Shown: one piece after another, positions 3,123-19,938 of the stretch | How the letters are laid out: every line of letters begins with the position of its first letter | Numbering within the stretch: position 1 is the first letter of the stretch | Virus record (IMG/VR): IMGVR_UViG_3300031712_000005 | DNA length: 20,000 bases | Source: an uncultured virus (IMG/VR IMGVR_UViG_3300031712_000005) | Taxonomy: Duplodnaviria; Heunggongvirae; Uroviricota; Caudoviricetes | Direction: 5' to 3' (one strand) | Made by a program: the position numbers and the translations under genes | The notes under the pieces: generated by a model | The model's input: only the letters and a program-made list of their open reading frames with translations | Told to the model about the DNA's origin: nothing | Database searches by the model: none

Positions 3123-3129
3123 AGAAACT

Positions 3130-4470: not shown

Positions 4471-5372
4471 CCCAGATTAACTTGAGAGACGGCCGAGAGT
4501 TGATCATCCGAGCCAAGGTCATAGAAGGAGATATCAGCGAGATCTTTGAGGGGACGTTGTCCAATCCACCCGCGGTAGTTGAACACAAGGAGATTCGAAC
4601 CCGCTACGAGCGCATCATGGATCGAGAGTCTGGGCACAACTCCAAGCCTGTTTTGGTGAAGATCGCTAAGGACCGAGAATTCAATGATCTGATTGAGAGG
4701 GACGTGTCAGTACTTGGTCAGCTGCACCCTGAAAACCCCAGTGAGCCAAGCAGCTTCCACAAGTACTACCCCACGAGTTATGGTGGGATCGGAGTCCTTG
4801 TTGATGGTAAGCAAGCCCACATCTTCGAGGAGATCAAGGGTTGTGTAACTCTTGATACTGTTCTCAAGGCCTACCCGAAGGGGATTGACTATCGGGACAT
4901 GGCTTGGATGTTCAAGCGGTCCCTTGTGGGCATGTGGTATGCCCACAAGCACAAGGTTATCCACGGAGCGATCTTGCCTCCACACATCCTACTCACCCTG
5001 GAAGATCACGGGGGGCGGATAGTCGATTGGTCCTACTCGACTCCAACAAGGATCAAAGTTCCGGCAATGGTCACCACCTACGAGGACTTCTACCCACCCG
5101 AAGTCCTTCACTCGGAGCCCGCGCGGGAGGGTACCGATCTCTATATGATGGCCAAGTGCGTTCAAGCACTACTTGGTGGAGACCTAAAAACCAAGGAGTA
5201 TCCGGATTCGGTCCCAGAGCCTATAAGGGACCTACTCGGACTCTGCCTAAATGAAAATGTCAATATGAGGCCTATTGACGCGAGTGAGGTTCATGATACC
5301 TTCGATAGGTTGCTGAAGGAAGTAGTAGGGAAACCTAAATTCCGCCCTTTTACACTGCCAGAGTTTATATGA
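4467..5372 (+). CDS. Ser/Thr protein kinase-fold protein, probable pseudokinase
   Basis: VLVK (VAIK-like lysine), IHGAILPPHIL in place of HRDxKPxN, IVDWS in place of DFG, YPPE, TDLYM, RP; ATGA overlap with the purA-like gene. Confidence 0.8.
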   Translation: MTQINLRDGRELIIRAKVIEGDISEIFEGTLSNPPAVVEHKEIRTRYERIMDRESGHNSKPVLVKIAKDREFNDLIERDVSVLGQLHPENPSEPSSFHKYYPTSYGGIGVLVDGKQAHIFEEIKGCVTLDTVLKAYPKGIDYRDMAWMFKRSLVGMWYAHKHKVIHGAILPPHILLTLEDHGGRIVDWSYSTPTRIKVPAMVTTYEDFYPPEVLHSEPAREGTDLYMMAKCVQALLGGDLKTKEYPDSVPEPIRDLLGLCLNENVNMRPIDASEVHDTFDRLLKEVVGKPKFRPFTLPEFI

Positions 5373-6508
5373 TAATCCCAAGTGGTCATGCATTACGTGA
5401 AGCCCTGAAGGTACTACTAACGAAGGATGTACGATTGGGGATCTTGGGCGCCAGCGCTGGTTCAGGAATGGTGGCAGGTCTTGCCACCATTCCTGGCCTA
5501 ACTAATGTGCTTCATGAGGCACACTTCCCGCACGCCAAGGAAGCTACCAGTGACTATCTCGGGTTCGTCCCCGAGAACTTCGTCTGCATGGATACCGCGT
5601 TGGAGCAAGCCATGAGGGCCTATTACCGAGCCTACCAGCCCGATGGGAAGCGGACGATTGGGATTGGGGCTACGGCCGCGATAGCCACGAACGAGATCCA
5701 CAGAGGCGAGCACAGGGTCTGGGTGGGGGTTTTCTCGGATGACCTAGTCTGTGTCTACTATGCCAGGTTCAAGAAGGGGGTGGGAGAAGAGGTTCGATTC
5801 AAAGATCTTCTAGCCTGTGATATGCTGATTGGGAAGGCCATACTACAAGCAGTTGGGGCCACAGACATCATTACTCTTCCTGATAACGTTGAGTTTGAGG
5901 ATTGTATCACTGATTGCAACACTCAAGCGAAGATTCTACTGAGCAAGAGACCATTCTTCCGGAGTGACGGTGCGCGACTCGGCTGGGATAGCATGATGCA
6001 CGACTTCGAGGCATCGGGTGTTGGCGTCTACCCCGGGTCGTTCACCGTCCCTCATTTTGGACACTTTGGGGTTGCCGATGCTTTCACCAAGCAGTACCAC
6101 CAGCCGGTGGTTTTCGCTATCGAGGTGAGCCCACCTCACAAGGATCTGTTGACCCCTTGGGATATGCTGAAGCGAGCCAAGCTGCTCAAAGGGCGACACG
6201 TGATCTTCACTTGGGGCGCCCCGTATTACTTGGACAAGGCTAGGCTATTCCCGAATACTAAGATCATTCTTGGAGCCGACGCCTTCGTTGAACTCTTGGA
6301 TGCCAAGTGGGGGTTCAGTGTTGACGCCCTTCAACGAGTGTTCAAGGAGACCGGGACCAAGCTCATCGTTCCGGATCGGTTGGTGAAGGGTGTATTCACC
6401 ACGCTTTGGGACTTGAGGCCTCCGAGTAACTTCCCCTGCGAGAGGCTTCCGGTCAGGTTTGACATCAGCTCGACTGAGCTGATTAGATCCGGCAATATCT
6501 GGTCCTAG
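5369..6508 (+). CDS. CinA/PncC-like N-terminal domain fused to HxGH nucleotidyltransferase (NMN/NaMN adenylyltransferase-like)
   Basis: N-half: IPGLTNVLHEAHFPH...YLG...MAMR-like QAMRAY...IGIGATAAIAT...RGEH (CinA-like pattern). C-half: YPGSFTVPHFGH, ILGADAF, DISSTELIR (NadD/NadM-like). ATGA overlap with the kinase gene. Confidence 0.75.
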   Translation: MIIPSGHALREALKVLLTKDVRLGILGASAGSGMVAGLATIPGLTNVLHEAHFPHAKEATSDYLGFVPENFVCMDTALEQAMRAYYRAYQPDGKRTIGIGATAAIATNEIHRGEHRVWVGVFSDDLVCVYYARFKKGVGEEVRFKDLLACDMLIGKAILQAVGATDIITLPDNVEFEDCITDCNTQAKILLSKRPFFRSDGARLGWDSMMHDFEASGVGVYPGSFTVPHFGHFGVADAFTKQYHQPVVFAIEVSPPHKDLLTPWDMLKRAKLLKGRHVIFTWGAPYYLDKARLFPNTKIILGADAFVELLDAKWGFSVDALQRVFKETGTKLIVPDRLVKGVFTTLWDLRPPSNFPCERLPVRFDISSTELIRSGNIWS

Positions 6509-6522
6509 CTCGATATTGCCGG
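6489..6522 (+). terminator. 11-bp inverted repeat around the operon's last stop codon; possible terminator or processing hairpin
   Basis: CCGGCAATATC (6489-6499) ... GATATTGCCGG (6512-6522), 12-nt loop containing the TAG stop; no clear U-tract follows. Confidence 0.4.
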
Positions 6523-6536
6523 TGTAACTAGAAAGG

Positions 6537-8339
6537 ATGGAAAAATTCGAACCCAAAATTCTACTCGGGGATAATAAAAATAGCCTTGCTGAACTTGAGC
6601 CAAATTCGGTCGACTTGATCTACTTGGATCCGCCTTATGGTAGCGGTAGAAAGTACAATCAGACTGTGCATAGTGGTAATGGTAGTCACGCGCAGATCTT
6701 GGCCTACCCTGATACCTGGAAACTTGATGTCGGGACTGACAATGATTTGGAGGCCCTTCTTGATAGTAGGCTAATCTCAGATTACCCACTGCTTAAGAAG
6801 TATCTTATTGGTAACCAAGAGGTAGTAAGTCAATACAACCCTAAGTTTTGGTCCTACCAAGTCTACATGGCTGTTAGGTTGGCGTTGGCGCACAGAGTTC
6901 TCAAAGAAAACGGGATGTTGTGTTACGAGTGCGACCCTAATGCATCCCCATTTGTACAATCTCTTCTAGGTCCGATTTTTCACACACCGTTGTATAAGGG
7001 ATCCTGGGTATCAACGGTCACTTGGAAACGCACTTTTGCGCATAACGACTCAAAAACCCTAGGTTCTGTTGTAGATGTATTGTTGTTCTATGCTAAAGGC
7101 CCTAACTACAAGTGGAATCGAGTACTCCAACCGCAGGCTGGCCTAGAAAAGGTCTATAAACATAGAGATCCTGACGGTAGATGGTGGCAATCAGTTACTC
7201 TAACCGGGTATGGAACCTCCGGTGGTAATAGTGGCAAACCTTGGAGAGGGATAGATCCATCATTAAGTGGGAAAGGCCGTCACTGGAACGTACCTGACCG
7301 AGCTAAGTGGTACTTCAAAGAGAAGTACCATAAGGATCTGACGGGTACCACCCAAGAGATGCTGGATATATTGGACGCTGAGGGTTTGATCTTCTGGTCA
7401 CCTAAGGGTGGAGTTCCTAGATACAAACACTTCTTGACCATTAACTCCGGAGTTCCGATCAGTAACTATTGGACTGATCTTACGACACTTGAGGCTTCCA
7501 GGGACGATCTTGAGTACTACCGAGGGGATATTCTACCCCTTAATACCCCAGCAGATGAAGCCTGGGAGGATATCAACCTAGGTAAGAGTGAGTCAATAAC
7601 TTTTGATGGCCAGAAGCCGCTGAAGTTAGTCCAGCGTGTAATTTTAGGCTGTACTGACCCTGGTGACTTGGTAGTGGACCCATTTGTCGGTAGCGGTACC
7701 ACTTGCATAGCGGCTTACCAGTTAGGCAGAAAGTCAATCGGGATGGAGTTGTCCCCAGAGACCTTCCGTGAAGCGCGCTTACGCTTGGAAAGGGAAAAAG
7801 TGATCATCACCCAAAGGGTGACCCATGTTACTGATGCTTCTTGCCTCTATGAGCTGGATGGTTACGGATGGTCAGAGTTCGTAGTTAAAAACGTGTTCAA
7901 TGCTGAGTACACTGATGGTCCTAACGACCACGGTCAGGATGGGTACTTCACTACAATAGCCCCAAACAACAAGCACCTAACGGTAGCTATTCAGGCAAAA
8001 AGCGGTAAAAGTGCTAAGGAGGTCAAGACCGGAATCTATGACCTCGATGAGGCTTTGAAGTACTGGCATAGAGACCAAGGTATTCTAGTAGCCTATCGGA
8101 AGTTTATTCAACCTGATCACTACAGAATGGCGAGAGATCGTGGGGACGTTCCTGGGCATCCGGGATATCCTAAAATTCAGATCATAGCTATAGAGCGCCA
8201 TTGGGAAGATAATGCACCCTTGTTGGGGGCGAAGGTTTACCCACCTTCGGACCACCCGATTGAGTTCTATACTAGGTTAGAAGAACAGAATATGGAGTTC
8301 GAGAGACAAAACGCAATGTTTGCTCTAGAATCAGAGTAA
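6537..8339 (+). CDS. N6-adenine/N4-cytosine DNA methyltransferase (beta class) fused to a C-terminal Mrr-like PD-(D/E)xK nuclease domain
   Basis: DLIYLDPPY near the N-terminus, QKPLKLVQRVI and DPFVGSGTT SAM-binding motif later (beta order); C-terminal DHGQDG...VAIQAKS resembles the Mrr D..D...QxK motif. Confidence 0.88.
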   Translation: MEKFEPKILLGDNKNSLAELEPNSVDLIYLDPPYGSGRKYNQTVHSGNGSHAQILAYPDTWKLDVGTDNDLEALLDSRLISDYPLLKKYLIGNQEVVSQYNPKFWSYQVYMAVRLALAHRVLKENGMLCYECDPNASPFVQSLLGPIFHTPLYKGSWVSTVTWKRTFAHNDSKTLGSVVDVLLFYAKGPNYKWNRVLQPQAGLEKVYKHRDPDGRWWQSVTLTGYGTSGGNSGKPWRGIDPSLSGKGRHWNVPDRAKWYFKEKYHKDLTGTTQEMLDILDAEGLIFWSPKGGVPRYKHFLTINSGVPISNYWTDLTTLEASRDDLEYYRGDILPLNTPADEAWEDINLGKSESITFDGQKPLKLVQRVILGCTDPGDLVVDPFVGSGTTCIAAYQLGRKSIGMELSPETFREARLRLEREKVIITQRVTHVTDASCLYELDGYGWSEFVVKNVFNAEYTDGPNDHGQDGYFTTIAPNNKHLTVAIQAKSGKSAKEVKTGIYDLDEALKYWHRDQGILVAYRKFIQPDHYRMARDRGDVPGHPGYPKIQIIAIERHWEDNAPLLGAKVYPPSDHPIEFYTRLEEQNMEFERQNAMFALESE

Positions 8340-8390
8340 CTACGAGTAGTATGTTGTGGACTTATAATCAGGTTATTGGGCATCTTTTGT

Positions 8391-9110
8391 ATGCCCAATA
8401 AATTAGATGCAAACAAGACCCCAGTAAGCAAACAAGACCTTCTTCTAGTACTCTGGCAAGCCTGGTACCAGATCTTCGGTGAGGAGCCTAAGCACGAGGC
8501 TGTTTGCGTGCTAGGTGGTCAGTGGGCCCTCGAGACCGGGTGGGGGAAGTCGATGTGGGACTTCAATCTAGGCAACGTGAAGTCCGTTGATGGGGATGGG
8601 CATGACTACCAGTTCTTTGGGTGTGGAGAAGAGCTCACCCTCAGCGTAGCTCAGCATGCGGTTCACGATAGCCCACTCGTGAAGGTGGTTAGAACCTATG
8701 CCGTTGGGAACACTCCGATGGCTTCGGTTTGGATCACTCCTGAGCACCCCTGGTGCCGCTTCCGGGCGTTCAACAGTCTCCTGGAGGGCGCTGTTGATTA
8801 CGTCAAGCTACTGAACAAGAGGTTCCAGAAGTCCTGGCCGGCGGTTATCGCCGGTGACCCCGCTCTGTTTGCGCACTACTTGAAGCAACAGCACTACTAT
8901 ACAGCCGATGAGACTCAGTATACCAACAGCATCAAGTCGACGTTCCATACGATGATGGGGGTACCAGTCAACTTCACTCACCCAGACCTGACAGATGCCC
9001 AGAAGGCTTCAGTACAGAACCTGGTAGCGATGACGATGGTCCAAAGCCTTGATGACATCCTGTCGGCGCCCTCTACGATGCCGACAGACGACGCTTCAGC
9101 GATGGCCTAA
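8391..9110 (+). CDS. Glucosaminidase/FlgJ-like (GH73-type) peptidoglycan hydrolase
   Basis: QWALETGWGK, FNLGNVK, FRAFNSLLEGAVDYVKLL, YYTADETQY match the lysozyme-like GH73 pattern; ATG 8391 preferred to TTG 8376. Confidence 0.7.
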   Translation: MPNKLDANKTPVSKQDLLLVLWQAWYQIFGEEPKHEAVCVLGGQWALETGWGKSMWDFNLGNVKSVDGDGHDYQFFGCGEELTLSVAQHAVHDSPLVKVVRTYAVGNTPMASVWITPEHPWCRFRAFNSLLEGAVDYVKLLNKRFQKSWPAVIAGDPALFAHYLKQQHYYTADETQYTNSIKSTFHTMMGVPVNFTHPDLTDAQKASVQNLVAMTMVQSLDDILSAPSTMPTDDASAMA

Positions 9111-9565
9111 GGCTTCTTGACCTTGGAGTGCTTGGAGTGCTTGGACGGCTTCTCATGAGCCTCCTTGTGCTCCACAGGCTCTACCTCGGCTTGAGCCTCT
9201 TCAGTCACCTCAATGACTGGGGGCGGTTCTTCGGCAGCGGCTTCTTGTTTCAAGTCTTCAAAGAGTTGGTCGGCTAGTTCTTCAGCGCTATTCGCCGCAC
9301 TCATTACGAACTTGCCCTTTGAGACAGCTTCTTTGATGAACCTGTCTCGGTGCTTGACACGAACAGCATCGGGCTCTGAGGCTTCTGGCATGATCTCGGC
9401 CAGGAGGATCAAGCTGTAGAGGTAGTCAATCTTCGACTCACTATTGCCTCTTGTCCGTACATCACTACCAATTCTTTCCTTGATAGTTTGGATGTGACTA
9501 TCCACATTTGCTATGAGCGACCTAGTTCTAGGGGCTACGATCAGACCAACGTTGACTTCTACCAA
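9107..9565 (-). CDS. Hypothetical protein with acidic/basic C-terminus (true start uncertain, possibly GTG at 9505)
   Basis: Long ORF with protein-like composition; ends in SKHSKHSK repeat; its 5' end overlaps the divergent ORF at 9488. Confidence 0.6.
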   Translation of the reverse strand: MVEVNVGLIVAPRTRSLIANVDSHIQTIKERIGSDVRTRGNSESKIDYLYSLILLAEIMPEASEPDAVRVKHRDRFIKEAVSKGKFVMSAANSAEELADQLFEDLKQEAAAEEPPPVIEVTEEAQAEVEPVEHKEAHEKPSKHSKHSKVKKP

Positions 9566-9793
9566 GTAACTGAAGTCAAAGGGAAGATGCTTCTTCTCCG
9601 AGAGATCAGTGGTAAGGCTGTGGACGACAAGGAGGGTGTTGGCGTTGAGTATGTAGTTCCCTCAAAGGGCCACTTCATTGGAGGGGTCGTCAAGGCGATC
9701 CCCAAAGGTCCCGGAATAAAGTTAGAGGGGCATTACGGGACCCTTTGGGAAGGCAAGCCTGTGTATCAGACCGCATGGGGCTACGGACACTAG
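9488..9793 (+). CDS. Phage/plasmid-type 'WGYDQTNVDFYQV' family protein, apparently lacking its normal N-terminus (possible gene fragment)
   Basis: SSRGYDQTNVDFYQVTEVKGK...LREI...VVP...WEGKPVYQTAWGYGH. From recall of this family, Trp normally precedes GYDQ; here the codon is AGG. No good RBS/start codon. Confidence 0.55.
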   Translation: MDVTIHICYERPSSRGYDQTNVDFYQVTEVKGKMLLLREISGKAVDDKEGVGVEYVVPSKGHFIGGVVKAIPKGPGIKLEGHYGTLWEGKPVYQTAWGYGH

Positions 9794-10560
9794 TTCCGTA
9801 CGTACGTCAGCGGTGGCAGGTATGTTAGGTCTACAACGTCGTTCCGCGAGACTAAGAGCTGATTATCAGGGTTTACTGGCGGCAACACGGTTGGGTTCTG
9901 ATCTTCCTCCAACCAACCCATGACATCGGCGTCCTTGAACGTAGGTAGCTTACGTCCCATCCACAGTAGGGCTAAGCCCATACGACGGTGACTAGCTTCC
10001 TCACCTCTATCACAGTGTCCACTAGCATACTGATTCAAGCGGCTCTCGATGGGCAGGGCCGAGCAAGCAGCGAATGAGGACCTAAGTATCGCTAGAGCAG
10101 CGTGGAAGCACAACTGTCTATTGTCAACGAGGTCTTGCCCACTCCATCCCTCAGTTTGATTGTTGGTGATCCGGTACCCGCCTCCGATGTCCACTACAAT
10201 CCGGTTAGGAGTGTTCCCTATTTTATCCTTCTTCCCTAAGTTTACTTGATTCAAGCACCAAGACGCCCCACCATCTCCTTTGGACATCGGGCCTTCCCCA
10301 GTATCTACGTCCAACCTGAAGGCGCTTTCATACGAGATCACCGCATAAAGAACCATAGCGGTTCGTATTCTACCCCTACTACCATGAAATATTGGTTTCT
10401 CTTGGGGGTCCCAAACTACATATGCCGTGTCCTTTGCGATGTCTCCATAACGCGACGTCGCCTCCTCCACGGTTTCCTGTGCCTCTGGGATATATGACTT
10501 CCTACCTGGAGGAGCTACCGAAACCATTAATGATATTAACCACGCAATTACCTGTTCCAA
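9790..10560 (-). CDS. Lysozyme-like/transglycosylase-fold protein with hydrophobic N-terminus
   Basis: VISYESAFRLDV (catalytic Glu-type ES motif), KGDGGASWCLNQV, later YASG; TTG start with AAGGAG RBS; N-terminal VIAWLISLMVSVAPP. Confidence 0.55.
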   Translation of the reverse strand: MEQVIAWLISLMVSVAPPGRKSYIPEAQETVEEATSRYGDIAKDTAYVVWDPQEKPIFHGSRGRIRTAMVLYAVISYESAFRLDVDTGEGPMSKGDGGASWCLNQVNLGKKDKIGNTPNRIVVDIGGGYRITNNQTEGWSGQDLVDNRQLCFHAALAILRSSFAACSALPIESRLNQYASGHCDRGEEASHRRMGLALLWMGRKLPTFKDADVMGWLEEDQNPTVLPPVNPDNQLLVSRNDVVDLTYLPPLTYVRN

Positions 10561-10692
10561 GGCATCTCTCCTTTTTGCAGGTAGCTCTGGCTCAGCGTGC
10601 TGAGCATTTATTGAGCCACTACAATCTAGGGTCTTTCGACTTTGATTACGTACTAGTCTTTTGTGCTACACCTCTCCATACTTGGGTCGGCT

Positions 10693-10720
10693 ACAATAGC
10701 CGCGCCATATAGGCTGTCAA
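10693..10720 (-). promoter_or_regulatory. Sigma70-like promoter for the lysozyme-like gene
   Basis: Minus strand TTGACA-N16-TATTGT; the -10 is overlapped by the palindrome CGGCTA-CAA-TAGCCG (10688-10702). Confidence 0.5.
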
Positions 10721-10974
10721 TCAAAAAGTAATTGGAACGGCTGACCTCTAGGCAGATCTAGTACCGGCCGAGTATGTGGCACTAACCAATAAATTCACTG
10801 AAGATTTGATTTACTCGGTTGTAGTCTGTGACACAATATCAAGGTATACTGCTTAATCAGATTCAATCCTCACGCTGACTTCACAGTTTTGGCTACTATT
10901 GCATTGACTAGTGGTCTGCGGCGGGCATTATCGGTACTAGGTACTTTATCCTACTATGTGGTCAGTAATGACAC

Positions 10975-11748
10975 ATGTACTCACCCATGGTTATTCAGGG
11001 GACGGCAAATACACCAAAAGATGGTTTTGCAAAAGTCCTTATCGATCCGAGTGTTATGGCTAACATGAGTTCTCAATGGAGCGTCAAGCGGGTCCCCCTA
11101 GATTTTTATTGGCCGGTGGGTTACCTATGGCATGGCTACATGAACCCGTGGCCAGGACCCATCGAGTGTGAAGACTGTGGGGGTACCGGACTCAATAGTG
11201 AGTGCCAGAAGCTATTTCGCAACTTTCGACGCTGGGCACCTAGACTAACAGAACAAGAGGTAGAACTCGCAACTCAAGCTGGTGTTAGTAGTGAGGAAAT
11301 AACTCAGATTCTCAACAGAGTTTGGGGTGAGGTTGATACCCAACTGATTCGATCCTATCTGACAGAGATTAGGGCAAAAACCACTGGTATCTGGGGTTTA
11401 TGCACCGTCTGCAAGGGTAAGAAAAGAGTGGTAAACCCAAACCCCGCTGTACAGCAGCTATACACAGATGTAGACTTGTTTGAGGAGTGGAGACCTATCG
11501 AACCCCCTAAGGGTGATGGTTGGCAACTCTGGCAGGTTCGAGCGGATGGGGGTTACCCTCAGTCGGCCGTGTATAAGTCTGATGAGCAGCTAGCTAAGTG
11601 GTGCTCGGTTCACTTCAAGTCTGACTATGCCGGATGGTTGAAATGGATCATACGAGAGGGTTCAAAAGTACCGCAGGATCCACCTGAATTCAGACTAAAA
11701 AGCGAAAACATCACTGTATTCCATCAGCAGCCCGTGAGCAAGGCCTAA
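10975..11748 (+). CDS. Phage-type protein with DnaJ-like CxxCxGxG zinc-finger motifs (start may be ATG 11056 or 11065)
   Basis: KRVPLDFYWP...GYMNP, CEDCGGTG, CTVCKGKK, EPPKGDGWQLW. Confidence 0.7.
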   Translation: MYSPMVIQGTANTPKDGFAKVLIDPSVMANMSSQWSVKRVPLDFYWPVGYLWHGYMNPWPGPIECEDCGGTGLNSECQKLFRNFRRWAPRLTEQEVELATQAGVSSEEITQILNRVWGEVDTQLIRSYLTEIRAKTTGIWGLCTVCKGKKRVVNPNPAVQQLYTDVDLFEEWRPIEPPKGDGWQLWQVRADGGYPQSAVYKSDEQLAKWCSVHFKSDYAGWLKWIIREGSKVPQDPPEFRLKSENITVFHQQPVSKA

Positions 11749-11996
11749 TGCGTTTCACCGAATGGTTGGATCAGCAACGATATCGCAGAGATCTCATAGG
11801 GGAGCTGGCCGAACAACTTCACCATCGGGCTTGGCCGGAGACATCGAATCTGCAGGCGCTCCGAGTTAGACTCTCACTGGAGCATGCTTCGACTTTGGCC
11901 CTTGAGACACTTGAATCTGCTTTCTATGAGTGGCAAATATCCAAGGACCTTCCGATGATGACCCTTTTCGTAATTCGGCAATTGTCGCTAAATTAG
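11748..11996 (+). CDS. YozE-like (SAM-like) small protein
   Basis: MRFTEWLDQQRYRRDLIGELA...WP...AFYEW resembles the YozE family F..WL....R.D.IG.LA pattern; TAATG coupling with the upstream gene. Confidence 0.6.
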   Translation: MRFTEWLDQQRYRRDLIGELAEQLHHRAWPETSNLQALRVRLSLEHASTLALETLESAFYEWQISKDLPMMTLFVIRQLSLN

Positions 11997-12046
11997 AGAC
12001 AAATTACATGACCTAGTCAGCCGGTGGTGTATAGTCCTGGGTACGT

Positions 12047-12490
12047 ATGATGGACCCTTTGAAGATCCACCCAGTATTTTTCGCTACTGAGGCCACCAAC
12101 TTCCAGAAAAAGCTCTATACCAGGAGGCTTCGTGGGGTGTCCACGCACGAGCAAAATGCAGAGAAGGCCGATGCAACCTTGATCATGGCTGTGACTCAGG
12201 TCATCGAAGCAGGTGAGTTCAGAGAGGTACCCATCTTGATCCCTGACACTTGGAAGACCTGGGTTGGCGCTAGAATTGTCGAGATGGCACATACTTGCAC
12301 TAATACTCTGAGGTCTGATCCACGCAAGAAGGTTACTCTGCCTATAGCTCGTAGGTTGTTGGAGTCTATCAAGCCAATGACCCCTAATATTGGGCAATTC
12401 TTAACAACTTCAGAGCCGCCTTGCTGGGTAGCCATCGGGTACATGCGCGAGGACCTACTACCGCCCTGGTTGATAGAGAGGCTGCTGTAG
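12047..12490 (+). CDS. Hypothetical protein
   Basis: 147 aa ORF, first of three tightly coupled + strand genes. Confidence 0.65.
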   Translation: MMDPLKIHPVFFATEATNFQKKLYTRRLRGVSTHEQNAEKADATLIMAVTQVIEAGEFREVPILIPDTWKTWVGARIVEMAHTCTNTLRSDPRKKVTLPIARRLLESIKPMTPNIGQFLTTSEPPCWVAIGYMREDLLPPWLIERLL

Positions 12491-12492
12491 CC

Positions 12493-13077
12493 ATGCCTAA
12501 AAAAGTCAGCCAGTCTACAGATGTTTCTTCAATGGAGGACATCGAGAAGTTCTGGAACGCAGTTCGCGTTCACAGAGTTGAGGTGTCTCCTGAAGCCCCT
12601 GGTCCCGAGTCTGTCATTGACATTGCACTAGAACGTCTGAGGACTGAACTACCAAAGACATTGGAAGGGTACTTAAGGACTGACTTGAGTGACCCAGATG
12701 TGTTTACTAATGCTGTAGTCGATGCTTCGAAGATACTACTCACGTCTCTGTTTGCGGAGCAACAGAAGCAGGATGTGAGTCTAATGGTGCAGTTGTTTTT
12801 GGAGGTTCCTGGTAAGTCACCTGTGGAGATAAAAGAGTTTCTCAGAGCAATCCCGCGCACTCTCGTCAACAAAATCATACTCAGAATGGAAAGGTCAAAA
12901 CATCAGAGTGGTCTACAAATGATGCTGTCCCTTGAAGCCTTGTTCCGCGATGGTCAGCTCAACCAGGATTACGAAGTCACGAAGGATACTAGCAACCGGC
13001 TGCAGATCATTTTCTACCCGAAAGAGACCCGCAGTCCCTTGAGTTTCCGTTTGAGAGACATGTTCATTGGTGGCTAA
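12493..13077 (+). CDS. Hypothetical protein
   Basis: ATG 2 nt after the upstream TAG; helical composition; TAATG coupling to the next gene. Confidence 0.65.
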   Translation: MPKKVSQSTDVSSMEDIEKFWNAVRVHRVEVSPEAPGPESVIDIALERLRTELPKTLEGYLRTDLSDPDVFTNAVVDASKILLTSLFAEQQKQDVSLMVQLFLEVPGKSPVEIKEFLRAIPRTLVNKIILRMERSKHQSGLQMMLSLEALFRDGQLNQDYEVTKDTSNRLQIIFYPKETRSPLSFRLRDMFIGG

Positions 13078-13856
13078 TGGAACTTCAGCTCGAATACTAC
13101 TGGAAGATAGTGCGTCCCCAGCGAGCTAAGCCTATTGGAGGTCACCCTACTTCTTCTCGAGTGCTTTCCAATCTGGTCAGTTGGGTGAACAACTTGAATC
13201 TTGAGCAGATACCATTTCAAGTGCTTCCGATGGACAACGGAAGAGCCTTCAGATCTCTGATTGATTCACCTAGGATGCATGACATTGAGGTGGTTGACCT
13301 TGATGGGTACAGCAACCTGATTGAGCCGATAGTAACCCTCTTGAGCGCCAAGAAGGTTAGCCACAACCTGTCGTTGGACTTCAGCCCACCTTTCCCAATC
13401 GAGTGGGATCTGATCTGGAGCTTGGTTGCATGCCCAGACCTATCAATATCCTCTTCTCTGATGGACTTCTCTGAGAGGTTCACCAACATCTTGTGCTTCC
13501 ATAACCAGCTTATGGAGCTTCGCTTCGATGCCCGTGAACGGGGGGTGATGATCTCCATTGAGGAAGGGATTCAAGCACTCGTGAAGTCGATCAGTAAGAA
13601 GAGAAAGGATCGACTCTATATCTTGTGCTTCATGCTCACTCTCGCGGCTGAGAACCGACTCCTCGAGCCATTCGTCCTGTATCTCAACCTCGGTAGCACC
13701 ACGAGCGGACTCCTTGAGACCATTCAAGCTCTCAAGGCCTGGACGCACTACGACTGTCCATTGCACCTTCTCATTGGATGCCAACCGGGCACTAAGTTAT
13801 CATCGGTGCTTCAGCGCCACCTAGCTGATGGCCTAGAGTGGATGTCACCCGCGTAG
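13077..13856 (+). CDS. Hypothetical protein
   Basis: 259 aa ORF translationally coupled to the previous gene; no recognised motif. Confidence 0.65.
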   Translation: MELQLEYYWKIVRPQRAKPIGGHPTSSRVLSNLVSWVNNLNLEQIPFQVLPMDNGRAFRSLIDSPRMHDIEVVDLDGYSNLIEPIVTLLSAKKVSHNLSLDFSPPFPIEWDLIWSLVACPDLSISSSLMDFSERFTNILCFHNQLMELRFDARERGVMISIEEGIQALVKSISKKRKDRLYILCFMLTLAAENRLLEPFVLYLNLGSTTSGLLETIQALKAWTHYDCPLHLLIGCQPGTKLSSVLQRHLADGLEWMSPA

Positions 13857-14330
13857 CTTACGAGTTATGTAGGACTCTACATTTTTGGGTACTAGCTTCG
13901 AGAAGTCTCCATTGTTCCTGGCGATCTCCTTGACCATTGAAGAGGATATGAACGAGTTGCTTGCTTTGGTGTCCAAGAATACCGTTTCGATGTTTGGATT
14001 GAGCATATAGTTCACGTGAGCCATCGCTAATTCAGCTTCAAAGTCTGAAACTGCACGCAAGCCCCTGACGATTACCTCTGCCCCAACGCTCTTGCAGTAC
14101 TCAACCAGTAACCCACTGAAGATATCGACTTTTATGTTCTCGAGGTCTGCACAGGCCTCCTTGATGAGCATCTGTCTTTCTCCGGCGGTCAATAGCGGAG
14201 ACTTTGCTGAGTTCGTACCAACACCTACAATAAGCCCACCGAATAACTTACTAGATCTTTGGATGATATCCCAGTGGCCAACGGTGACTGGGTCGAAACT
14301 TCCTGCGTATACAGCGATCATGGGGTTCAT
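13845..14330 (-). CDS. coaD: Phosphopantetheine adenylyltransferase
   Basis: IAVYAGSFDPVTVGHWDII, GLLVEY, IVRGLRAVSDFEAELAMAHVN, IETVFL, FISSSMVKEIA; 161 aa is a typical CoaD length. Confidence 0.93.
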   Translation of the reverse strand: MNPMIAVYAGSFDPVTVGHWDIIQRSSKLFGGLIVGVGTNSAKSPLLTAGERQMLIKEACADLENIKVDIFSGLLVEYCKSVGAEVIVRGLRAVSDFEAELAMAHVNYMLNPNIETVFLDTKASNSFISSSMVKEIARNNGDFSKLVPKNVESYITRKLRG

Positions 14331-14383
14331 AGTACCTTATTTGACGGGTGAAGTCTAACTAAAGCTCTTATCGGAACTGGACT

Positions 14384-14947
14384 ATGATGGCCCTCCTCAG
14401 CATACAAGTCCCTCACGAGGTATCCCGAGCTCTAGGGAGAGTCAAGGTTCCTGGTACCCCAGAGGGCCGCGAGACTTACCACATAACTCTTCTCTACCTT
14501 GGGAAGGACGTTCCCATTGACGATGTCTCAAAGGCGCTTGTGGTGGCCTACAGGGTGGCGGAGATTACCCGTCCCATACCGCTTGCTGTCGATGAGGTAT
14601 CGTCCTTCCCGAAAGGTGACGATGGGGTCCCCATCATTTGTCCGGTCAAGAGTCCAGAGCTACATCAGCTCTGGGAGGCGCTCTGTTCGGCGTTCGATAG
14701 CGCCAAGGTCGACTACTCGAAGAAGTTTCCGGTCTATAAGCCTCACGTGACCCTGGCATACGATGTCTCCGACTTTGAGTCGATGGAGATAGGACCCATC
14801 GACTGGGTAGCGTATGAGATGTGCCTATGGAGCGGAAACTCGGGAGACGAGGCAGTATCAATCACGATACCGTTCTCGTTCCCGAGTAAAGAGTCCGTAT
14901 GCAGGAAGCTAGTTCAGGCTCGGCTCAGGTTCCCCGCCTTCCTCTGA
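14384..14947 (+). CDS. 2H phosphoesterase (2'-5' RNA ligase/LigT-like; Acb1-like candidate)
   Basis: Two HxT motifs: YHITLLYLG and YKPHVTLAY, about 85 aa apart. Confidence 0.85.
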   Translation: MMALLSIQVPHEVSRALGRVKVPGTPEGRETYHITLLYLGKDVPIDDVSKALVVAYRVAEITRPIPLAVDEVSSFPKGDDGVPIICPVKSPELHQLWEALCSAFDSAKVDYSKKFPVYKPHVTLAYDVSDFESMEIGPIDWVAYEMCLWSGNSGDEAVSITIPFSFPSKESVCRKLVQARLRFPAFL

Positions 14948-15532
14948 GGTGGGTAGCTTAGGAGTTACTGATTCCAAGTAAACCAGGTGATTTCTAGCAG
15001 CCACTTCATCTTTGATCCAGTACACAGCAGCCCGAGCCCCCTCCTCATGAACCGTATCGAAAATCTGATCCTCGACCATCGTCTTGCACGCGGTACGAAT
15101 TGTTGAATCCGTACTGGTTTTATTCAATAGCTTGTGAAGCTCTGGAACGGAGAGCCTTTGACCTTGATCTTGGCCAAAGATCAACACTTTGAGTATTCCT
15201 GTGGCCGCAATCTTGTATGAACCATGCTCTTTGGCTAAGTATCCGCTTCGGTTCCGAACCTTGGGGGGCTTCTCAGGCAGCTCAACCACTTCAGGTGGTG
15301 GTTCATGACTGACAGCCTGTCGCGGGGTTGCTTTGGATTTTCGTGGGCGAGTAGTTGATGTCTCGACCTTCTTGACCGGGGGTGATACCGGCGCCGGGGG
15401 CGCTTCCATTGGCACCTGTTTCCGGTAGAGTAGAGTATCGGCTATGATTCTGAAGGTTTCACCCAAAATCTGGCGGATAGCCCCACCAAGGGTTTTGGCT
15501 ATGAATCTGATGTCACTTCTTAGGCTGCTCAT
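14909..15532 (-). CDS. Putative winged-helix DNA-binding protein with Pro/Lys-rich linker
   Basis: C-terminal LSVPELHKLL...STIRTACKTMVEDQIF...GARAAVYWI fits a wHTH pattern; ATG 15532 has a GAGG RBS. Confidence 0.5.
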   Translation of the reverse strand: MSSLRSDIRFIAKTLGGAIRQILGETFRIIADTLLYRKQVPMEAPPAPVSPPVKKVETSTTRPRKSKATPRQAVSHEPPPEVVELPEKPPKVRNRSGYLAKEHGSYKIAATGILKVLIFGQDQGQRLSVPELHKLLNKTSTDSTIRTACKTMVEDQIFDTVHEEGARAAVYWIKDEVAARNHLVYLESVTPKLPTSEEGGEPEPSLN

Positions 15533-16487
15533 TGGCTTCCTCGATGTTCTCTTGGATTCTCTCAAACCGGCTCTTGGGTGGGGCTTTTGGTTTTCTCGGG
15601 ACCGGGGCAACGATACTCACGCCTTTCGATCCTCCTCGCCCTGGGTCAACCCCAATTAGCAGAGAAGAGCCAGCATTACCAAGATCCTCAGCCTGTCTTA
15701 TCTGATTCAAGCGTGCTTGTCTACGCTCTTCAGCTGCAACTTCAGCTGAAGACATGATTCCTTGGTCCCGGTTCCTTCCAGTGACAACACTGGTTCGTCC
15801 TTGAATCGCCGGAGTATGAATGGGACGTTCTATTGGCGGTGGCGCGGGAACATTCTCGCTAAGATCGAAGTTAGCCAAGCGTGCTTGCCTTCGTTGCTCA
15901 ACCTCAGTCCCATGCTGACCAATAAACCCTCGATGTGTTCTTTGGTAGGCGTTGATGAGGATGGCGTCTGGAACCCTTCGGTTGTCGATCCCAACTGGCC
16001 CGCTGACATACTCATTCCCTTCCCCAGCCCCATAGGAGGTGCTAATCTCAGGTATGGTTGCGTGCGGGTTGAAGGTTGGGTTGGCGATGTCCCACTCTTG
16101 CTCAGCCGCTCTCATCCGGATGATCCCACCCCCAATAACTGGGAAGACCATCGTGAACTCAAGCGTTCTGACTTCGTAGCTGGCCCCAGCTACGCGATAG
16201 GAGCTTCGACCGATAATGGTGAACCCAGAGGTTGCCCCGCGGCGACCAATTGGATCTACTAGTTCTGAGAACGGAAGGACATACTCGTTGACTGTAACCC
16301 CTTCGAAAATACTCAAAGCACGTGTTGGACGGATCGGTTGAGTAACCCTTCTACTATTAGAGGGATCGGTAAAGTTCACAATAACGTCACCTGCGCATTC
16401 CGCGTAGGCTAGGCAGTAGAGTACCATGTTTTCAGGGAACTCCTGAGCGTTCATGACCAGGCGCGGATTGTCTAATCGAAACAGCAT
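15513..16487 (-). CDS. Hypothetical protein with C-terminal PKSRFERI motif
   Basis: 324 aa ORF; internal repeat-like EQRRQARL / EERRQARL; Pro/Lys-rich tail. Confidence 0.7.
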   Translation of the reverse strand: MLFRLDNPRLVMNAQEFPENMVLYCLAYAECAGDVIVNFTDPSNSRRVTQPIRPTRALSIFEGVTVNEYVLPFSELVDPIGRRGATSGFTIIGRSSYRVAGASYEVRTLEFTMVFPVIGGGIIRMRAAEQEWDIANPTFNPHATIPEISTSYGAGEGNEYVSGPVGIDNRRVPDAILINAYQRTHRGFIGQHGTEVEQRRQARLANFDLSENVPAPPPIERPIHTPAIQGRTSVVTGRNRDQGIMSSAEVAAEERRQARLNQIRQAEDLGNAGSSLLIGVDPGRGGSKGVSIVAPVPRKPKAPPKSRFERIQENIEEANEQPKK

Positions 16488-16552
16488 AGTAGTGATCCCT
16501 AATACCCCAGACGGTTGTACTCGTGACCTTTATTTTTCAGTAGGTACTTTCG

Positions 16553-16825
16553 ATGAAAAGGCTGATTCGCCTATGTAATGCAGTTCAGACTATCTGTCCG
16601 CAAGGTAGTTTGACTCTGACCGGTGTCCCTGAGGACCCCGAGAATAATACTTGGAAGGGTACGATCTCTATAGGGTGCATGATTCTGGTTGAGTCCACGG
16701 GTACCGTAGAAGAGGTGCTCATGGACTTGAACAGTAAACTTGAGAGGATGTCCAAGCGTCTCATGCGTCAATTATCCCCTTCCAGTCCACCGGAGGACGG
16801 CTCGCCCCCAAGCTCCAAGTCCTAG
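16553..16825 (+). CDS. Hypothetical protein
   Basis: 90 aa ORF filling the gap between two minus-strand genes; stop overlaps the convergent stop (CTAG). Confidence 0.6.
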   Translation: MKRLIRLCNAVQTICPQGSLTLTGVPEDPENNTWKGTISIGCMILVESTGTVEEVLMDLNSKLERMSKRLMRQLSPSSPPEDGSPPSSKS

Positions 16826-17442
16826 CTTTTCTCCAATGCCTCCCTGACTATGGCCTCAAAATCTAGGCCAAGTGGGTTCTTTAGTTTTGGTGGCTCGGGT
16901 CGATTGAACTCGAAATCAAGTATATTTTGGATCTCGTCATAGCACTCAACAACTTTCCCATTTTCTTCTGGCTGGGTGCTTTGATCTAGAGTACCAGCCC
17001 GGGTTACTTCGATGATCTTGTTGCCCATGATCCGTTCGTAACGGTTTGCTATAAGACTTGGGCGTTTGGGCAACACGACTTGACTGTAGTGAGTAGCTCC
17101 CTGCAGGTGGAAGGAGGGTCCTTGCCGACCATACTTTGCGATGGCTGCTTCAAAGTCGATTAGAGTATTGAAAAACCAAGCATCCCCACTAGTGTCGACG
17201 AAAAGGTACCGAGACTCCTCCCCCTCAACGCTGTAGTACTTGTTATGGGCAAGATCTCGCGTACCTTTTGGAGGGAAAAGGTAGGAGCTACTCCATCTAT
17301 TTGAGCCAAGGGAGGTTCGGATGCTAATGGGTGCTGGTGAGCTATTGGAGTTAGTGTTGATGTACCAGACTCGGCAGTATCCTTGCTTACCGGTTCGTAG
17401 CTGGACTAACGTTCGATTGGAGTAGACAAGATCACAACCCAT
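16822..17442 (-). CDS. Hypothetical protein containing NRYERIM motif
   Basis: 206 aa ORF; starts 3 nt after the stop of the upstream gene. Confidence 0.65.
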   Translation of the reverse strand: MGCDLVYSNRTLVQLRTGKQGYCRVWYINTNSNSSPAPISIRTSLGSNRWSSSYLFPPKGTRDLAHNKYYSVEGEESRYLFVDTSGDAWFFNTLIDFEAAIAKYGRQGPSFHLQGATHYSQVVLPKRPSLIANRYERIMGNKIIEVTRAGTLDQSTQPEENGKVVECYDEIQNILDFEFNRPEPPKLKNPLGLDFEAIVREALEKS

Positions 17443-17445
17443 AGG

Positions 17446-17739
17446 TTACCTACCCGGTGGTCTTAATACCTTTGGTTGATCCCAGACCGTTTGAATGATC
17501 GGGCCATGCTGAGGCACCTTGACCTTCGGTGGTGCCCTGTTGATGTAAGCCCGGTCTAGGTCAAGAGCATTATACTTACTCTCGACCCATTGACGTTGAG
17601 CTCTTGATAGCTTGATCATGGCTCCTCTTTCGAGGTCCCCAAGCATGCTTTTGAAGCACCTCTCCTCATACATGCTAATGCGCTTCAGGCCAGCGTCAAG
17701 GATAGCACGCAAGAGGGTTAGATCAGTTTTCTTCGTCAT
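17446..17739 (-). CDS. Hypothetical protein (start MTKKTDL at 17739)
   Basis: The ORF-track extension to 17859 is only the alternative frame of the poly-Asp repeat; the protein-like part begins at ATG 17739, overlapping the ATPase stop. Confidence 0.6.
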   Translation of the reverse strand: MTKKTDLTLLRAILDAGLKRISMYEERCFKSMLGDLERGAMIKLSRAQRQWVESKYNALDLDRAYINRAPPKVKVPQHGPIIQTVWDQPKVLRPPGR

Positions 17740-18973
17740 CATCGTCATTATCGTCATCGTCGTCGTCATCATCATCATCATCGTCGTCATCCTCATCTTC
17801 ACCGTCTTCGGTGTCGTAGGTGTCGCTCTCTTCCTCTTCGATGATGGACTTATTGGCAAAATTGTAGACGTCGGTCAACGTCATGGACTCTGTAATAGCA
17901 GCCGGCTCCCCATCGGTTACTCGGTCATATATCCTTAGGCAGTGCTCTGGGGGTAGCTCTGTTAGTTGGATGATCGTCGATAGCCTACCTGGTCTGGTTA
18001 GAGCTTCATCCATGTCAGGTAGTTTAGTGTTGGTGGTGCAGATAATTCTCAGGTTCAGGGTCTGCCCGAGAATACCATCCGATGCATTAAGAAGTGCAGA
18101 TATTGCAGACATTGTTTCTTCTGTACGTTTCACCAGAGCCTTGTCTGAATCCTCCAGAATGAGGATGATGGGGTCATCCGACCCTGTCATCCCACGAGCT
18201 TTAACCAGGACTGGTACTAACTCAGGTCCGGTCAAGTTCTGAATCATGTCACTCGGAATAAGTACAAAGATAGCGTCGATGATGTCGTGCATCAACCCAC
18301 GAATCAAGTAGGACTTACCAGTTCCAGGCTTCCCGTGTATGACACTAAGCCTCCCGAGGGGCTTATCCCTTTGGAGGTCAGCGAGCAGGGATTTGTATTC
18401 GGTAATCACTTCTTCTGTGTAGTTGTCCTCTTCCAACTCAAGCCCAGCGCGCCCAACCTCGATTATCTCAAGTTCACCGTTTATCCTTGCAATTGAGTAC
18501 ACCGGCTGTCTTATGTTTGATGGGATTAAGAACTTCCCAATGATAGACCCAACCTGGGCATGCTGGGTCTGGTCGATGGTCATCAGTTCGATTTTAAGGG
18601 TCCAGTCCATCGATACTTGGACTCGTAGCGCGCCCTTGGACCAGGTAATCCAATGCTCTGAGTCGCTCCGACGTGAGCCAGCTTGAAAGAGAGCCTTCCG
18701 AGAAAAGATCACGGACCCAGCGATCTTGCTTACCAGAGCCTTCGTGAAGTTGAGTAGTTCCTCCTCGGTGTCCCCATCTTCTAGATGCCCCTGGCAGTAC
18801 CCGGAGTAAACCCCATGGCCGGTACTAATCCCAAACTCGAGAAGCATTTGCGCAAACGGGCTGTATTGACCTAAGGCTCCACAAATAGATGGATTCCACC
18901 ACTCCGGTCTCGTATTCTTCAATTCAACTTTGGGTTCTGACTTTACGACGCCTGGTCTTCGGATTGAGGCCAT
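17723..18973 (-). CDS. AAA+ ATPase (classical AAA clade, BCS1-like) with acidic C-terminal tail
   Basis: Walker A GKPGTGKS, Walker B ILILED, ISALLNASDG, sensor CTTN, arginine finger ALTRPGRL; AGGAG RBS. Confidence 0.88.
   Translation of the reverse strand: MASIRRPGVVKSEPKVELKNTRPEWWNPSICGALGQYSPFAQMLLEFGISTGHGVYSGYCQGHLEDGDTEEELLNFTKALVSKIAGSVIFSRKALFQAGSRRSDSEHWITWSKGALRVQVSMDWTLKIELMTIDQTQHAQVGSIIGKFLIPSNIRQPVYSIARINGELEIIEVGRAGLELEEDNYTEEVITEYKSLLADLQRDKPLGRLSVIHGKPGTGKSYLIRGLMHDIIDAIFVLIPSDMIQNLTGPELVPVLVKARGMTGSDDPIILILEDSDKALVKRTEETMSAISALLNASDGILGQTLNLRIICTTNTKLPDMDEALTRPGRLSTIIQLTELPPEHCLRIYDRVTDGEPAAITESMTLTDVYNFANKSIIEEEESDTYDTEDGEDEDDDDDDDDDDDDDDNDDDDEEN
17726..17840 (-). repeat. 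GAY/GAR triplet run encoding an Asp/Glu-rich tail
   Basis: (TCA/TCG)n run on the + strand; translates to EEEESDTYDTEDGEDEDDDDDDDDDDDDDDNDDDDEEN. Confidence 0.9.
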
Positions 18974-19073
18974 GTTCTTCAGTGTCTCCTCTTCTTGTTA
19001 CTTATTCCAAGGCAAAGTGGCAACAGGTATACACCAGATGTGCCAATGTCAGCTATAATTATCGTCATGTAGC

Positions 19074-19103
19074 TTGACACTTGAACACTTATGCTACTAA
19101 ATT
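19074..19103 (+). promoter_or_regulatory. Sigma70-like promoter candidate
   Basis: TTGACA (19074-19079)-N18-TAAATT, 7 nt before ATG 19111, in the AT-rich divergent intergenic region. Confidence 0.45.
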
Positions 19104-19110
19104 AGGCAAG

Positions 19111-19650
19111 ATGAGTGAGCCGCGGACTAGGTACCAGAGAAGCATCGAGGTTATCGACTCACAAGTCAAACCACTAAGCCGATATGAAAGATTTGACCGT
19201 GTACTAACGACGGTCCTCAGGGAAGTTATGCGCGGATCCGAGCTAAAGGCAGAGGCCAAGGGCCGGAGGATACACATCTCTCTTGGGACTACTTCTTGGG
19301 AGTATCCGAACCTAGAGCTGGGGCTCAGGTCGATTGGCGACCTGCTGGAAGGGAACATTGGGGCTGTCGGTACTGTAGAGGGTGAATGCTCTGGGAAAGA
19401 CCAAATCGATCAAGAGCTACTCAACGGGGCTTTCCTTGTCGTCTCGGCGTTCGGAGCCAAGGTTAAGATCTGTTGGATACGAACTCTGCCCGCGCAAGAG
19501 GTTCCTCTGAAGTCCGGTGGTACTCATCATGTGACTCAGAAGGGGTTTCGTACTTCTATCTATGATGAATCCAACTTTATCGAGCTAATACGAACCTCTT
19601 TGACAGCTCAAGAGCGAATTGAGAAGGGTTCGACCTTGTCTCGCCCGTGA
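19111..19650 (+). CDS. Hypothetical protein with two N-terminal R-Y-x-R motifs
   Basis: MSEPRTRYQRSIE...PLSRYERFDR; ATG 19111 preferred to TTG 19081. Confidence 0.65.
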   Translation: MSEPRTRYQRSIEVIDSQVKPLSRYERFDRVLTTVLREVMRGSELKAEAKGRRIHISLGTTSWEYPNLELGLRSIGDLLEGNIGAVGTVEGECSGKDQIDQELLNGAFLVVSAFGAKVKICWIRTLPAQEVPLKSGGTHHVTQKGFRTSIYDESNFIELIRTSLTAQERIEKGSTLSRP

Positions 19651-19651
19651 C

Positions 19652-19921
19652 TCACGTCTTGAATGAGTCCAAGATTCGCTCGTATCTCGTTCTTACTGCA
19701 GGACGTGGCTTAGGATGATTCGTAACAGGTAGTCCAGGTGGGTTAAACGCAGCTTGAATCTGATCCGTAACCCTAAGTGTGCTAGCTGCATCGAGGGCCG
19801 CAAATACCTGAGAATCTTGCGCAGCTCGTATCTCCTGTTGTGTTCTGAGTATTTGAGCATCCACTATTGGTAGGCGACCAGGGGTTCTAAGTGAGAACCC
19901 AAAGGGTTGCCAGCAGTTCAA
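19652..19921 (-). CDS. Small hypothetical protein ending in RTRYERILDSFKT (start uncertain, TTG 19921 or GTG 19864)
   Basis: ORF bounded upstream by an in-frame TGA at 19958-19960; carries the recurrent motif, which supports it being real. Confidence 0.55.
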   Translation of the reverse strand: MNCWQPFGFSLRTPGRLPIVDAQILRTQQEIRAAQDSQVFAALDAASTLRVTDQIQAAFNPPGLPVTNHPKPRPAVRTRYERILDSFKT

Positions 19922-19938
19922 CCTGAACTTGACTAAAG

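Follow-up and report, generated by a model that had tools for sequence, protein, structure and literature searches.

The stretch analysed here, 20,000 nucleotides from an uncultured Caudoviricetes virus (IMG/VR record IMGVR_UViG_3300031712_000005; hereafter the window), encodes several proteins that share a short peptide built around R-[YF]-[EQ]-R. These recurrent peptides are copies of one portable, mostly C-terminal tag. The tag is real, strongly non-random and lineage-wide, and it is carried by about 6-15% of the proteins of the lineage. It is probably a label that is read in trans by a single partner. A phage AAA+ machine, either the AAA+ ATPase encoded next to tagged genes in the window or a phage ClpX, is tentatively proposed as the reader.

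The window forms the final 20 kb of G000, a viral contig of 71,681 bp whose CheckV completeness is 15%. A simple longest-ORF rule gave 92 open reading frames (ORFs) on this contig, with 22,632 amino acids (aa), covering 95% of its length. Homologues of 67 of the 92 ORFs were found in G001, a complete phage of 512,571 bp with terminal repeats, in inverted synteny with its 223-316-kb region; G000 is therefore a fragment of a megaphage. The ORFs of G000 are devoted to replication and nucleotide metabolism (for example DNA polymerase, helicases, ThyX, a PurZ-like adenylosuccinate synthetase, NAMPT, Nudix enzymes, methylases and ClpX), and no structural proteins were found among the 92. The other records compared include G002 (145 kb), G003 (252 kb), the complete phages G005 (448 kb) and G006 (435 kb, 65% G+C), and also G004, G007 and G008. 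The two tag-less records, G003 and G008, are the most distant from the others and are incomplete. The stretch occurs in rhizosphere metagenome runs, and contigs from four rhizosphere DNA runs were identical over it except for one G>T at 19315, a comparison that is no test of selection.

As the preliminary description of the window had expected, the motif far exceeds its shuffled background across the proteome. [TSN]R[YF][EQ]R is present in nine copies in eight of the 92 ORFs of G000, against a shuffle mean of 0.07, and none of 2000 shuffles reached nine; TRYERI is present in five copies (shuffle mean 0.00). In G001, [TSN]R[YFW][EDQ]R was counted 54 times in 801 ORFs (shuffle mean 1.34, maximum 5 in 300 shuffles), and 33 tag copies were counted in the 274 ORFs of G002. 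When T-R-[FY]-[DE]-R-I was searched as a DNA pattern, 34, 16, 5 and 0 matches were obtained in G001, G002, G000 and G003, respectively, while the reversed control pattern gave 0 matches in all four records. Stop-to-stop frames of at least 45 aa with R[FYW][DE]R in the last 12 residues were also counted, and the reversed motif and an internal window of the frames served as controls. Fifty-one frames of G001 have a terminal tag (reversed motif 0, internal control 2), and 85 of 5250 frames end in the tag in G006 (reversed motif 2, internal control 6). G004 is moderately enriched (37 versus 15 in the control), and G007 has a handful of tags (7 versus 4). G003 showed 2 terminal frames, with 0 for the reversed motif and 2 for the internal control, and the tag was not found in G008. 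G005 lacks the R..R arrangement and has its own version, S-R-F-D-[LM]-[IM] followed by Gly or an acidic residue, in 14 frames versus 3 for the reversed motif. When the whole of IMG/VR was scanned for P-T-R(CGN)-F-E-R-I-L, only 23 stretches were returned, of which 10 come from G001, 4 from a 228-kb contig, 2 from G002 and 7 from seven smaller contigs. In other 380-450-kb phages, the genes flanking homologues of the AAA+ ATPase of the window end in related peptides.

The window itself was searched for R[YF][EQ]R in six frames. The preliminary description had listed six sites and a weaker variant, PDRYHRPWVI, all of which proved to be in frame and correctly placed to within one or two codons; two extra matches, at 4529 (+) and 11534 (+), are out of frame with the local ORFs. 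The first copy, T-R-Y-E-R-I-M at 4599-4619 (+; R[YF][EQ]R at 4602-4613), lies in a kinase-like protein (ORF 4467-5372; Pkinase PF00069, E 9.5e-8), within an insert of about 30 residues between the Gly-rich N-terminal strands and the VKIAK strand. This insert was found in G000, G001 (as TRFDHIL) and G002 and is missing in the kinase of the tag-less G003, in agreement with the earlier suggestion that the loop is an insertion which untagged homologues lack. S-R-F-E-R-I-Q at 15552-15572 (-; 15558-15569) is located 18 residues from the C-terminus of a 324-aa protein (ORF 15513-16487). Among five orthologues of this protein, APP..R..R is invariant and the preceding ~100 residues are variable and not alignable; an ESM Atlas search with the 324-aa protein gave no usable match. 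N-R-Y-E-R-I-M at 17026-17046 (-; 17032-17043) is internal to a 206-aa protein (ORF 16822-17442); at the equivalent place, PTRFERIL stands in the 191-aa positional orthologue of G001 (23% identity, E 0.005). The 189-aa protein of ORF 19081-19650 is the only carrier in the window with N-terminal copies, T-R-Y-Q-R-S-I at 19126-19146 (+; 19129-19140) and S-R-Y-E-R-F-D at 19177-19197 (+; 19180-19191), and its G001 orthologue (35% identity) has SRFDRL near the N-terminus. T-R-Y-E-R-I-L at 19670-19690 (-; 19676-19687) is C-terminal, 11 residues from the end of the 89-aa ORF 19652-19921. In G001, a 346-aa protein that ends RTRFERILDDTDELYPL resembles this ORF weakly in its C-terminal part (29% over 62 aa, E 7e-4).

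The degenerate copy D-R-Y-H-R-P-W-V-I-stop (2071-2097, +) ends the 62-aa ORF 1912-2100, as had been reported, and its length and V-I end are those of a second form of the tag found in the relatives (TRFEREPVI-stop). The positional counterpart of this ORF in G001, between the NAMPT and vWA-like genes, contains two TRFDRIL copies, and no sequence similarity beyond position was detected between the two. G000 has four degenerate C-terminal versions (DRYSRVL, TRYSRIL, VRFARAT and DRYHRPWVI). Three more copies of the tag lie on G000 outside the window, at 20376-20639, 22105-22536 and 51025-51372. At 19982-20639 of G000, likewise outside the window (L002 982-1636), two overlapping ORFs, one of 150 aa and one of 87 aa that ends PTRYERILRGRD, are the counterpart of a single G001 protein, a RecA/DnaB-like small ATPase of 219 aa that ends PTRFEREDVI. 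A frameshift, a split gene or an error in sequencing could account for this.

The larger number of copies in G001 allowed the form and position of the tag to be described. Forty-six of the 54 copies start 9-16 residues from the C-terminus, and the other 8 are internal or N-terminal. Two forms were distinguished. In form A, P-T-R-F-E-R-[IVL]-L-x leads into a short acidic tail of variable length. Form B is P-T-R-F-E-R-[ED]-x-V-I-stop, which always has 9 residues from Thr to the end (17 of the 54 copies); with the stop included, form B was found 8 times in G004 versus 1 in the control. In G001, form A is mostly on minus-strand genes (22 versus 7) and form B mostly on plus-strand genes (12 versus 5) (L008-L033); each form may label its own transcription units or its own timing class. 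Pro precedes the tag at -1 in 56 of 75 C-terminal copies, and the 15 residues upstream of the tag contain 17% Pro compared with 5.6% in the proteome, which bears out the Pro-rich surroundings noted before. The tail after the tag is rich in Asp, Ile and Leu.

The preliminary description had also claimed that conservation is at the level of the peptide and not of the DNA, on the ground that two RTRYERI copies of the window differ at four of seven codons. That codon comparison was correct, and the claim holds more widely: 43 TRFER copies in G001 are encoded by 36 different 15-nt sequences, and every synonymous codon is used. Because codons vary freely among the copies, selection acts on the peptide. 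The motif was expected to be kept in orthologues, and positional orthologues that have diverged to 23-29% identity indeed retain the tag at the same place. Moreover, the tag changes in concert within a lineage. Nine of 10 orthologous or positional pairs have Tyr in G000 and Phe in G001, the exception being Phe versus Leu, and in G005 the second Arg is replaced by Leu or Met across the tag copies. Concerted change of this kind is a prediction of one shared, co-evolving reader and is otherwise hard to explain; since the Tyr/Phe and Arg-to-Leu/Met changes hit all copies together, the sequences point to such a reader. The proposal of a targeting or docking signal is thus partly supported, by enrichment, peptide-level conservation, retention and concerted change, and is to be amended in two respects, in that the tag is mainly C-terminal and its consensus is longer than R-[YF]-[EQ]-R. 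Neither was apparent before because the window alone hides them.

The carriers of the tag were then compared with one another and with untagged proteins. With the tag masked, none of the G000 carriers matched another by BLASTP at E 1e-3, so the five carriers in the window are unrelated, as first described. The 61 tagged proteins of G000 and G001 fell into 51 BLAST clusters, and the 83 tagged proteins of G006 into 72 clusters. Pfam's own cut-off was reached by just two of the 58 scanned carriers of G001 and G000, the kinase and a zinc-ribbon protein; sub-threshold matches were a RecA/DnaB-like small ATPase and a Tad2-like domain (22.5 bits). In G006, none of 80 carriers matched a Pfam family at E 0.001 or better. 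The median length of the carriers, 139 aa, equals that of all ORFs. A homologue in G006 was found for 4 of 46 tagged and 193 of 755 untagged G001 ORFs, and for 3 of 43 versus 98 of 508 when the ORFs were size-matched, indicating that tagged proteins evolve fast.

How such a peptide might be read can be outlined from its composition. The tag would form a short N-capped amphipathic helix. It has a capping-box pattern, Thr, Ser or Asn followed by Glu or Asp at +3 (by our reading of the sequence, not computed), and Phe/Tyr, Ile and Leu would come together on one face of the helix with the two Arg residues beside them. In an AlphaFold model of the 324-aa protein made from five sequences (predicted local distance difference test score (pLDDT) 55), a beta-rich domain at 10-135 and disorder at 270-300 are followed by a helix at 307-318, which starts at the first Arg of the tag with low confidence. 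This helix could plug into a groove of a receptor, and the tagged accessory proteins would be tethered to that receptor as clients, adaptors or substrates, in the way that the SspB tail tethers its cargo to the ClpX N-domain.

Two phage AAA+ proteins are the tentative candidates for this receptor, a proposal drawn from gene content and context. The first is encoded in the window at 17723-18973 (-), with 416 aa (PF00004) that end in a run of about 30 Asp/Glu residues (17723-17860). A search gave 417 homologues at E 1e-5 or better, with full-length ones on 380-470-kb phage contigs. The protein is present in all seven tag-bearing genomes examined, and its gene lies where tagged genes cluster most densely, a conserved arrangement seen in the window as well as in L078, L079, L081 and L082. 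A profile search matched residues 199-362 only, with Cdc48/p97 D1 as the best match (E 4e-21) and assignment to the classical clade; no sequence relative of the N-domain was found in the PDB. For the structural model (pLDDT 78.5), Foldseek over the full length ranked Bcs1 and YjoB first, whereas VIA-align placed Bcs1/YjoB in a tie with the proteasomal Rpt subunits, so the fold assignment is uncertain. A Bcs1/YjoB-type ATPase would combine the classical AAA module with the N-terminal fold specific to Bcs1, and Bcs1 itself has a membrane anchor at its N-terminus and a heptameric ring; residues 1-18 of the model have pLDDT <50, and there is no helix before residue 32. The gene is followed by a small ORF at 17446-17742 (-), which overlaps the end of the AAA+ gene, has an uncertain start and ends W-D-Q-P-K-V-L-R-P-P-G-R. 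An end of the form W-[ED]-x-x-K-x-L-[KR]-P-P-G-[RS] is conserved in five phage lineages and follows the AAA+ gene in L078, L079, L081 and L082 too. The small ORF may encode a partner of the AAA+ ATPase. The p97/Cdc48 motifs VIM, VBM and SHP and the Vps4 MIT-MIM interaction are known cases of short, often Arg-containing helical motifs that dock on the N-domain of one AAA ATPase. The present case resembles them in having a classical-clade AAA ATPase among the tagged genes, but the tag has no sequence match to those motifs, and the AAA+ N-domain has no sequence relative in the PDB and an uncertain fold.

The second candidate is a phage ClpX (G000 26225-27487; PF06689, AAA_2 and ClpB_D2-small), also present in G001. 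It has kept the zinc-finger N-domain, the GYVG pore loop and the [VLM]GF loop, and no ClpP was found in any of the four records searched, the complete G001 included. According to PMC7226468, the C-terminal ClpX-binding (XBR) peptide of the adaptor SspB docks on the ClpX zinc-binding domain (ZBD). In a scaffold adaptor as described there, a flexible linker connects the folded part to a short docking peptide at the terminus, which contains basic and hydrophobic residues (PMC7226468). The tagged proteins match this layout, which favours an AAA+ reader, and the phage has a ClpX with a zinc-binding N-domain. The difference is that the tag is found on dozens of unrelated carriers and not on one adaptor. 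With respect to an ssrA-like degron, which needs a position at the extreme C-terminus and a free carboxylate, 17 of the 54 G001 copies have the fixed 9-residue spacing, and the others have variable tails or are internal or N-terminal (8 of 54).

Several observations weigh against an AAA+ reader or the framework around it. The AAA+ ATPase of the window is also present in the tag-less G008, and ClpX in the tag-less G003. P-T-R-F-E-R-I-L is unlike LRVVK and the ZBD consensus LKxh given in PMC7226468; the N-domain of the phage ClpX may have another peptide specificity. Covariation was uninformative: of 39 columns of the AAA+ ATPase that hold an acidic residue in every genome whose tag has Arg at position 4, one turns hydrophobic in G005 (E65 to Ile), which is the background rate (54 of 1483 such columns in 42 core proteins). 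The tag helix is itself a low-confidence proposal, based on one low-confidence model (pLDDT 55) and sequence reasoning. Finally, the ORF calls come from a simple longest-ORF rule and not from a gene finder.

Other phage proteins were considered as readers, and a papain-like protease and capsid parts, both taken up below, are candidates as well. A vWA-like protein encoded in the window at 2119-3084 (+) was rejected as a universal reader, since it is absent from the tag-bearing G005 and G006. It has 321 aa, belongs to phrog_2971 and contains a D-V-T-G-S motif resembling a vWA metal ion-dependent adhesion site (MIDAS); its gene has the small tagged ORF on one side and the genes for the PurZ-like protein and the kinase on the other. 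A second AAA protein (G001 212804-214042) is absent from the tag-bearing G004 and G005. Forty-eight G001 proteins are common to G006 and not found in G005, but this set is uninformative for the reader, since G005 has its own version of the tag. Overall, no phage protein was singled out as the reader by its phyletic profile.

By analogy, the tag would work like the capsid targeting sequence (CTS) of phage T4, the SspB XBR and the encapsulin cargo-loading peptides, but it is not a member of any of these, because the testable defining features failed, namely position, consensus and gene neighbourhood. Two of these systems suggest a different, rather unlikely role for the tag, in which it would dock accessory proteins on the scaffold or the inner capsid surface for packaging and for injection along with the DNA. 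Encapsulin cargo-loading peptides are short C-terminal peptides that follow a flexible linker on unrelated cargo and are read by the inside of an HK97-fold shell; the gene of the carrier adjoins the shell gene or is fused to it. The tag is likewise mostly C-terminal, follows a flexible linker and is found on unrelated proteins, and thus has the layout of encapsulin cargo. However, its consensus is another one, and its carriers are not beside a shell gene. The T4 CTS stands at the N-terminus and is cleaved off by the prohead protease, in contrast to the present tag, which is C-terminal in 46 of the 54 G001 copies and sometimes internal (in the loop of the kinase and midway along the 206-aa protein), has another sequence and is borne by about 50-85 proteins per genome. 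G001 does have a homologue of a head maturation protease, phrog_18299. The CTS of IPI-III and Alt is portable to foreign proteins, and PMC3012670 describes it as the sole conserved element across diverse internal defence proteins. The likeness is that a short peptide alone is common to diverse small phage proteins, many of them anti-defence in T4 (PMC3012670). The carriers studied here are also small, fast-evolving and without known families, with one sub-threshold Tad2-like match. The genomic distribution argues against loading into the virion. Forty-five of the 46 tagged ORFs of G001 are within the first 300 kb, and none of the 225 ORFs between 300 and 500 kb is tagged, where the tail, head, protease, portal, terminase and recombination genes are located. 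The tagged genes extend from 10 to 290 kb and the major head gene is at ~403-404 kb, so that the head genes are >100 kb from most tagged genes. Among the literature on the capsid targeting sequence and jumbo phages, only work on T4, P1 and SPN3US was found.

A receptor of the host is also imaginable, although we regard it as distinctly unlikely. The tag would then dock on an abundant host protein, such as a chaperone, a polymerase, a division or membrane protein, or host ClpXP or Lon, and its lineage-specific versions would follow different hosts. This would account for the lack of a phage protein with an outstanding phyletic profile; host switches would be another explanation of the concerted Tyr/Phe and Arg/Leu changes, and the carriers resemble early host-takeover proteins in being small, without known families and encoded in accessory regions. 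However, phages that differ in G+C content (49% and 65%), and probably also in their hosts, have the R-[FY]-[DE]-R core in common, and a phage-borne reader fits this better.

The tag could instead be a processing site, a reading that we hold to be improbable. In this case a phage papain-like cysteine protease would cut within the tag, with Phe/Tyr at P2 and Glu/Asp at P1, trimming the tail or splitting internal sites and thereby activating or releasing proteins. At P2, enzymes of the papain family favour bulky hydrophobic residues. Two Peptidase_C1 proteins are encoded by G001, one of them with the Q/GSC, GHA and NSWG motifs intact, and homologues were found in all five tag-bearing complete or near-complete genomes (G001, G004, G005, G006 and G007) and in neither G003 nor G008. 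This phyletic match is, however, confounded by relatedness, the two tag-less records being also the distant and incomplete ones. Cleavage in the kinase insert would part the Gly-rich strands from the strand with the catalytic Lys, and the fixed distance of form B to the C-terminus suggests that a chain end is read and not the site of an endoprotease.

That there is no reader at all, and that the motif is all that is still conserved in one large paralogous family that diverges fast, or else an element of the DNA or RNA at gene ends, is very improbable: some small BLAST clusters, tandem arrays of similar-sized genes and extended similarity before some tags (for example Y-x-G-P-R-P and C-x-D-[FY]) would agree with it, but the carriers form 51 clusters of 61 proteins and 72 of 83, the tag also stands in the kinase insert, at N-termini and internally, its 43 copies have 36 DNA versions, other frames lack the motif (the reversed DNA pattern gave 0 against 34 matches), and the concerted Tyr/Phe and Arg/Leu changes need selection on all copies jointly.

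Further genes of the window concern nucleotide and cofactor metabolism. A 457-aa adenylosuccinate synthetase homologue is encoded at 3097-4470 (+) (PurZ-type phrog_1211, E 7e-72; PF00709, E 5e-56), and an HD phosphohydrolase is present elsewhere on G000; the phage may make 2-aminoadenine (Z) DNA. A set for NAD and cofactor salvage comprises a Nudix/NadR-like end at 1-492, NAMPT at 502-1908 (phrog_448, E 1e-127) and two cytidylyltransferase-like proteins at 5369-6508 and 13845-14330, and the whole set is conserved in G001. At 14384-14947 (+), a protein resembling 2H phosphoesterases and 2'-5' RNA ligases just reaches the cut-off of the anti-CBASS family Acb1 (PF23474, 27.7 bits versus 27; E 2.6e-6). 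A scan of 14000-20000 for promoters and terminators gave signal at the level of shuffled sequence, and no RNA datasets were listed as containing window positions 14900-19950. G001 additionally encodes Cas7 and Cas8c/Csd1-like proteins, an ABC transporter set with an OmpA-domain binding protein, GroEL and a DnaJ-domain protein, and inteins interrupt both its ClpX and an AAA ATPase of 981 aa; these extras and the intein genes are located, taken together, at 120.5-123.3 kb, 46.7-50.3 kb, 277-279 kb and 291-294 kb.

Returning to the tag as a label read by one partner, a broader and rather doubtful, though possible, interpretation is that of a private protein-addressing code, in which a tenth of the proteome would bear a zip-code peptide specific to the lineage, and a dedicated phage machine that co-evolves with the peptide would read it. 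This machine could be a Bcs1-like AAA ATPase that handles small folded proteins, and it would sort, deliver or time the fast-evolving accessory proteins. To our knowledge, no such protein-addressing layer has been described for any virus of bacteria, and no published description of the tag was found in the literature searched. About a tenth of the genes in these 400-500-kb phages (46 of 801 ORFs in G001 and 85 frames in G006) are dark matter that shares one label. Once the reader is found, dozens of obscure proteins would be given a shared fate, whether packaging, tethering to an unfoldase, timed removal or localisation. The lineage versions, with Tyr or Phe and with Arg or Leu/Met, are natural material for specificity swaps. 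Together with its reader, the peptide would provide a handle for pull-downs, a portable tag for engineering and a view of how the accessory proteome of very large phages is organised.

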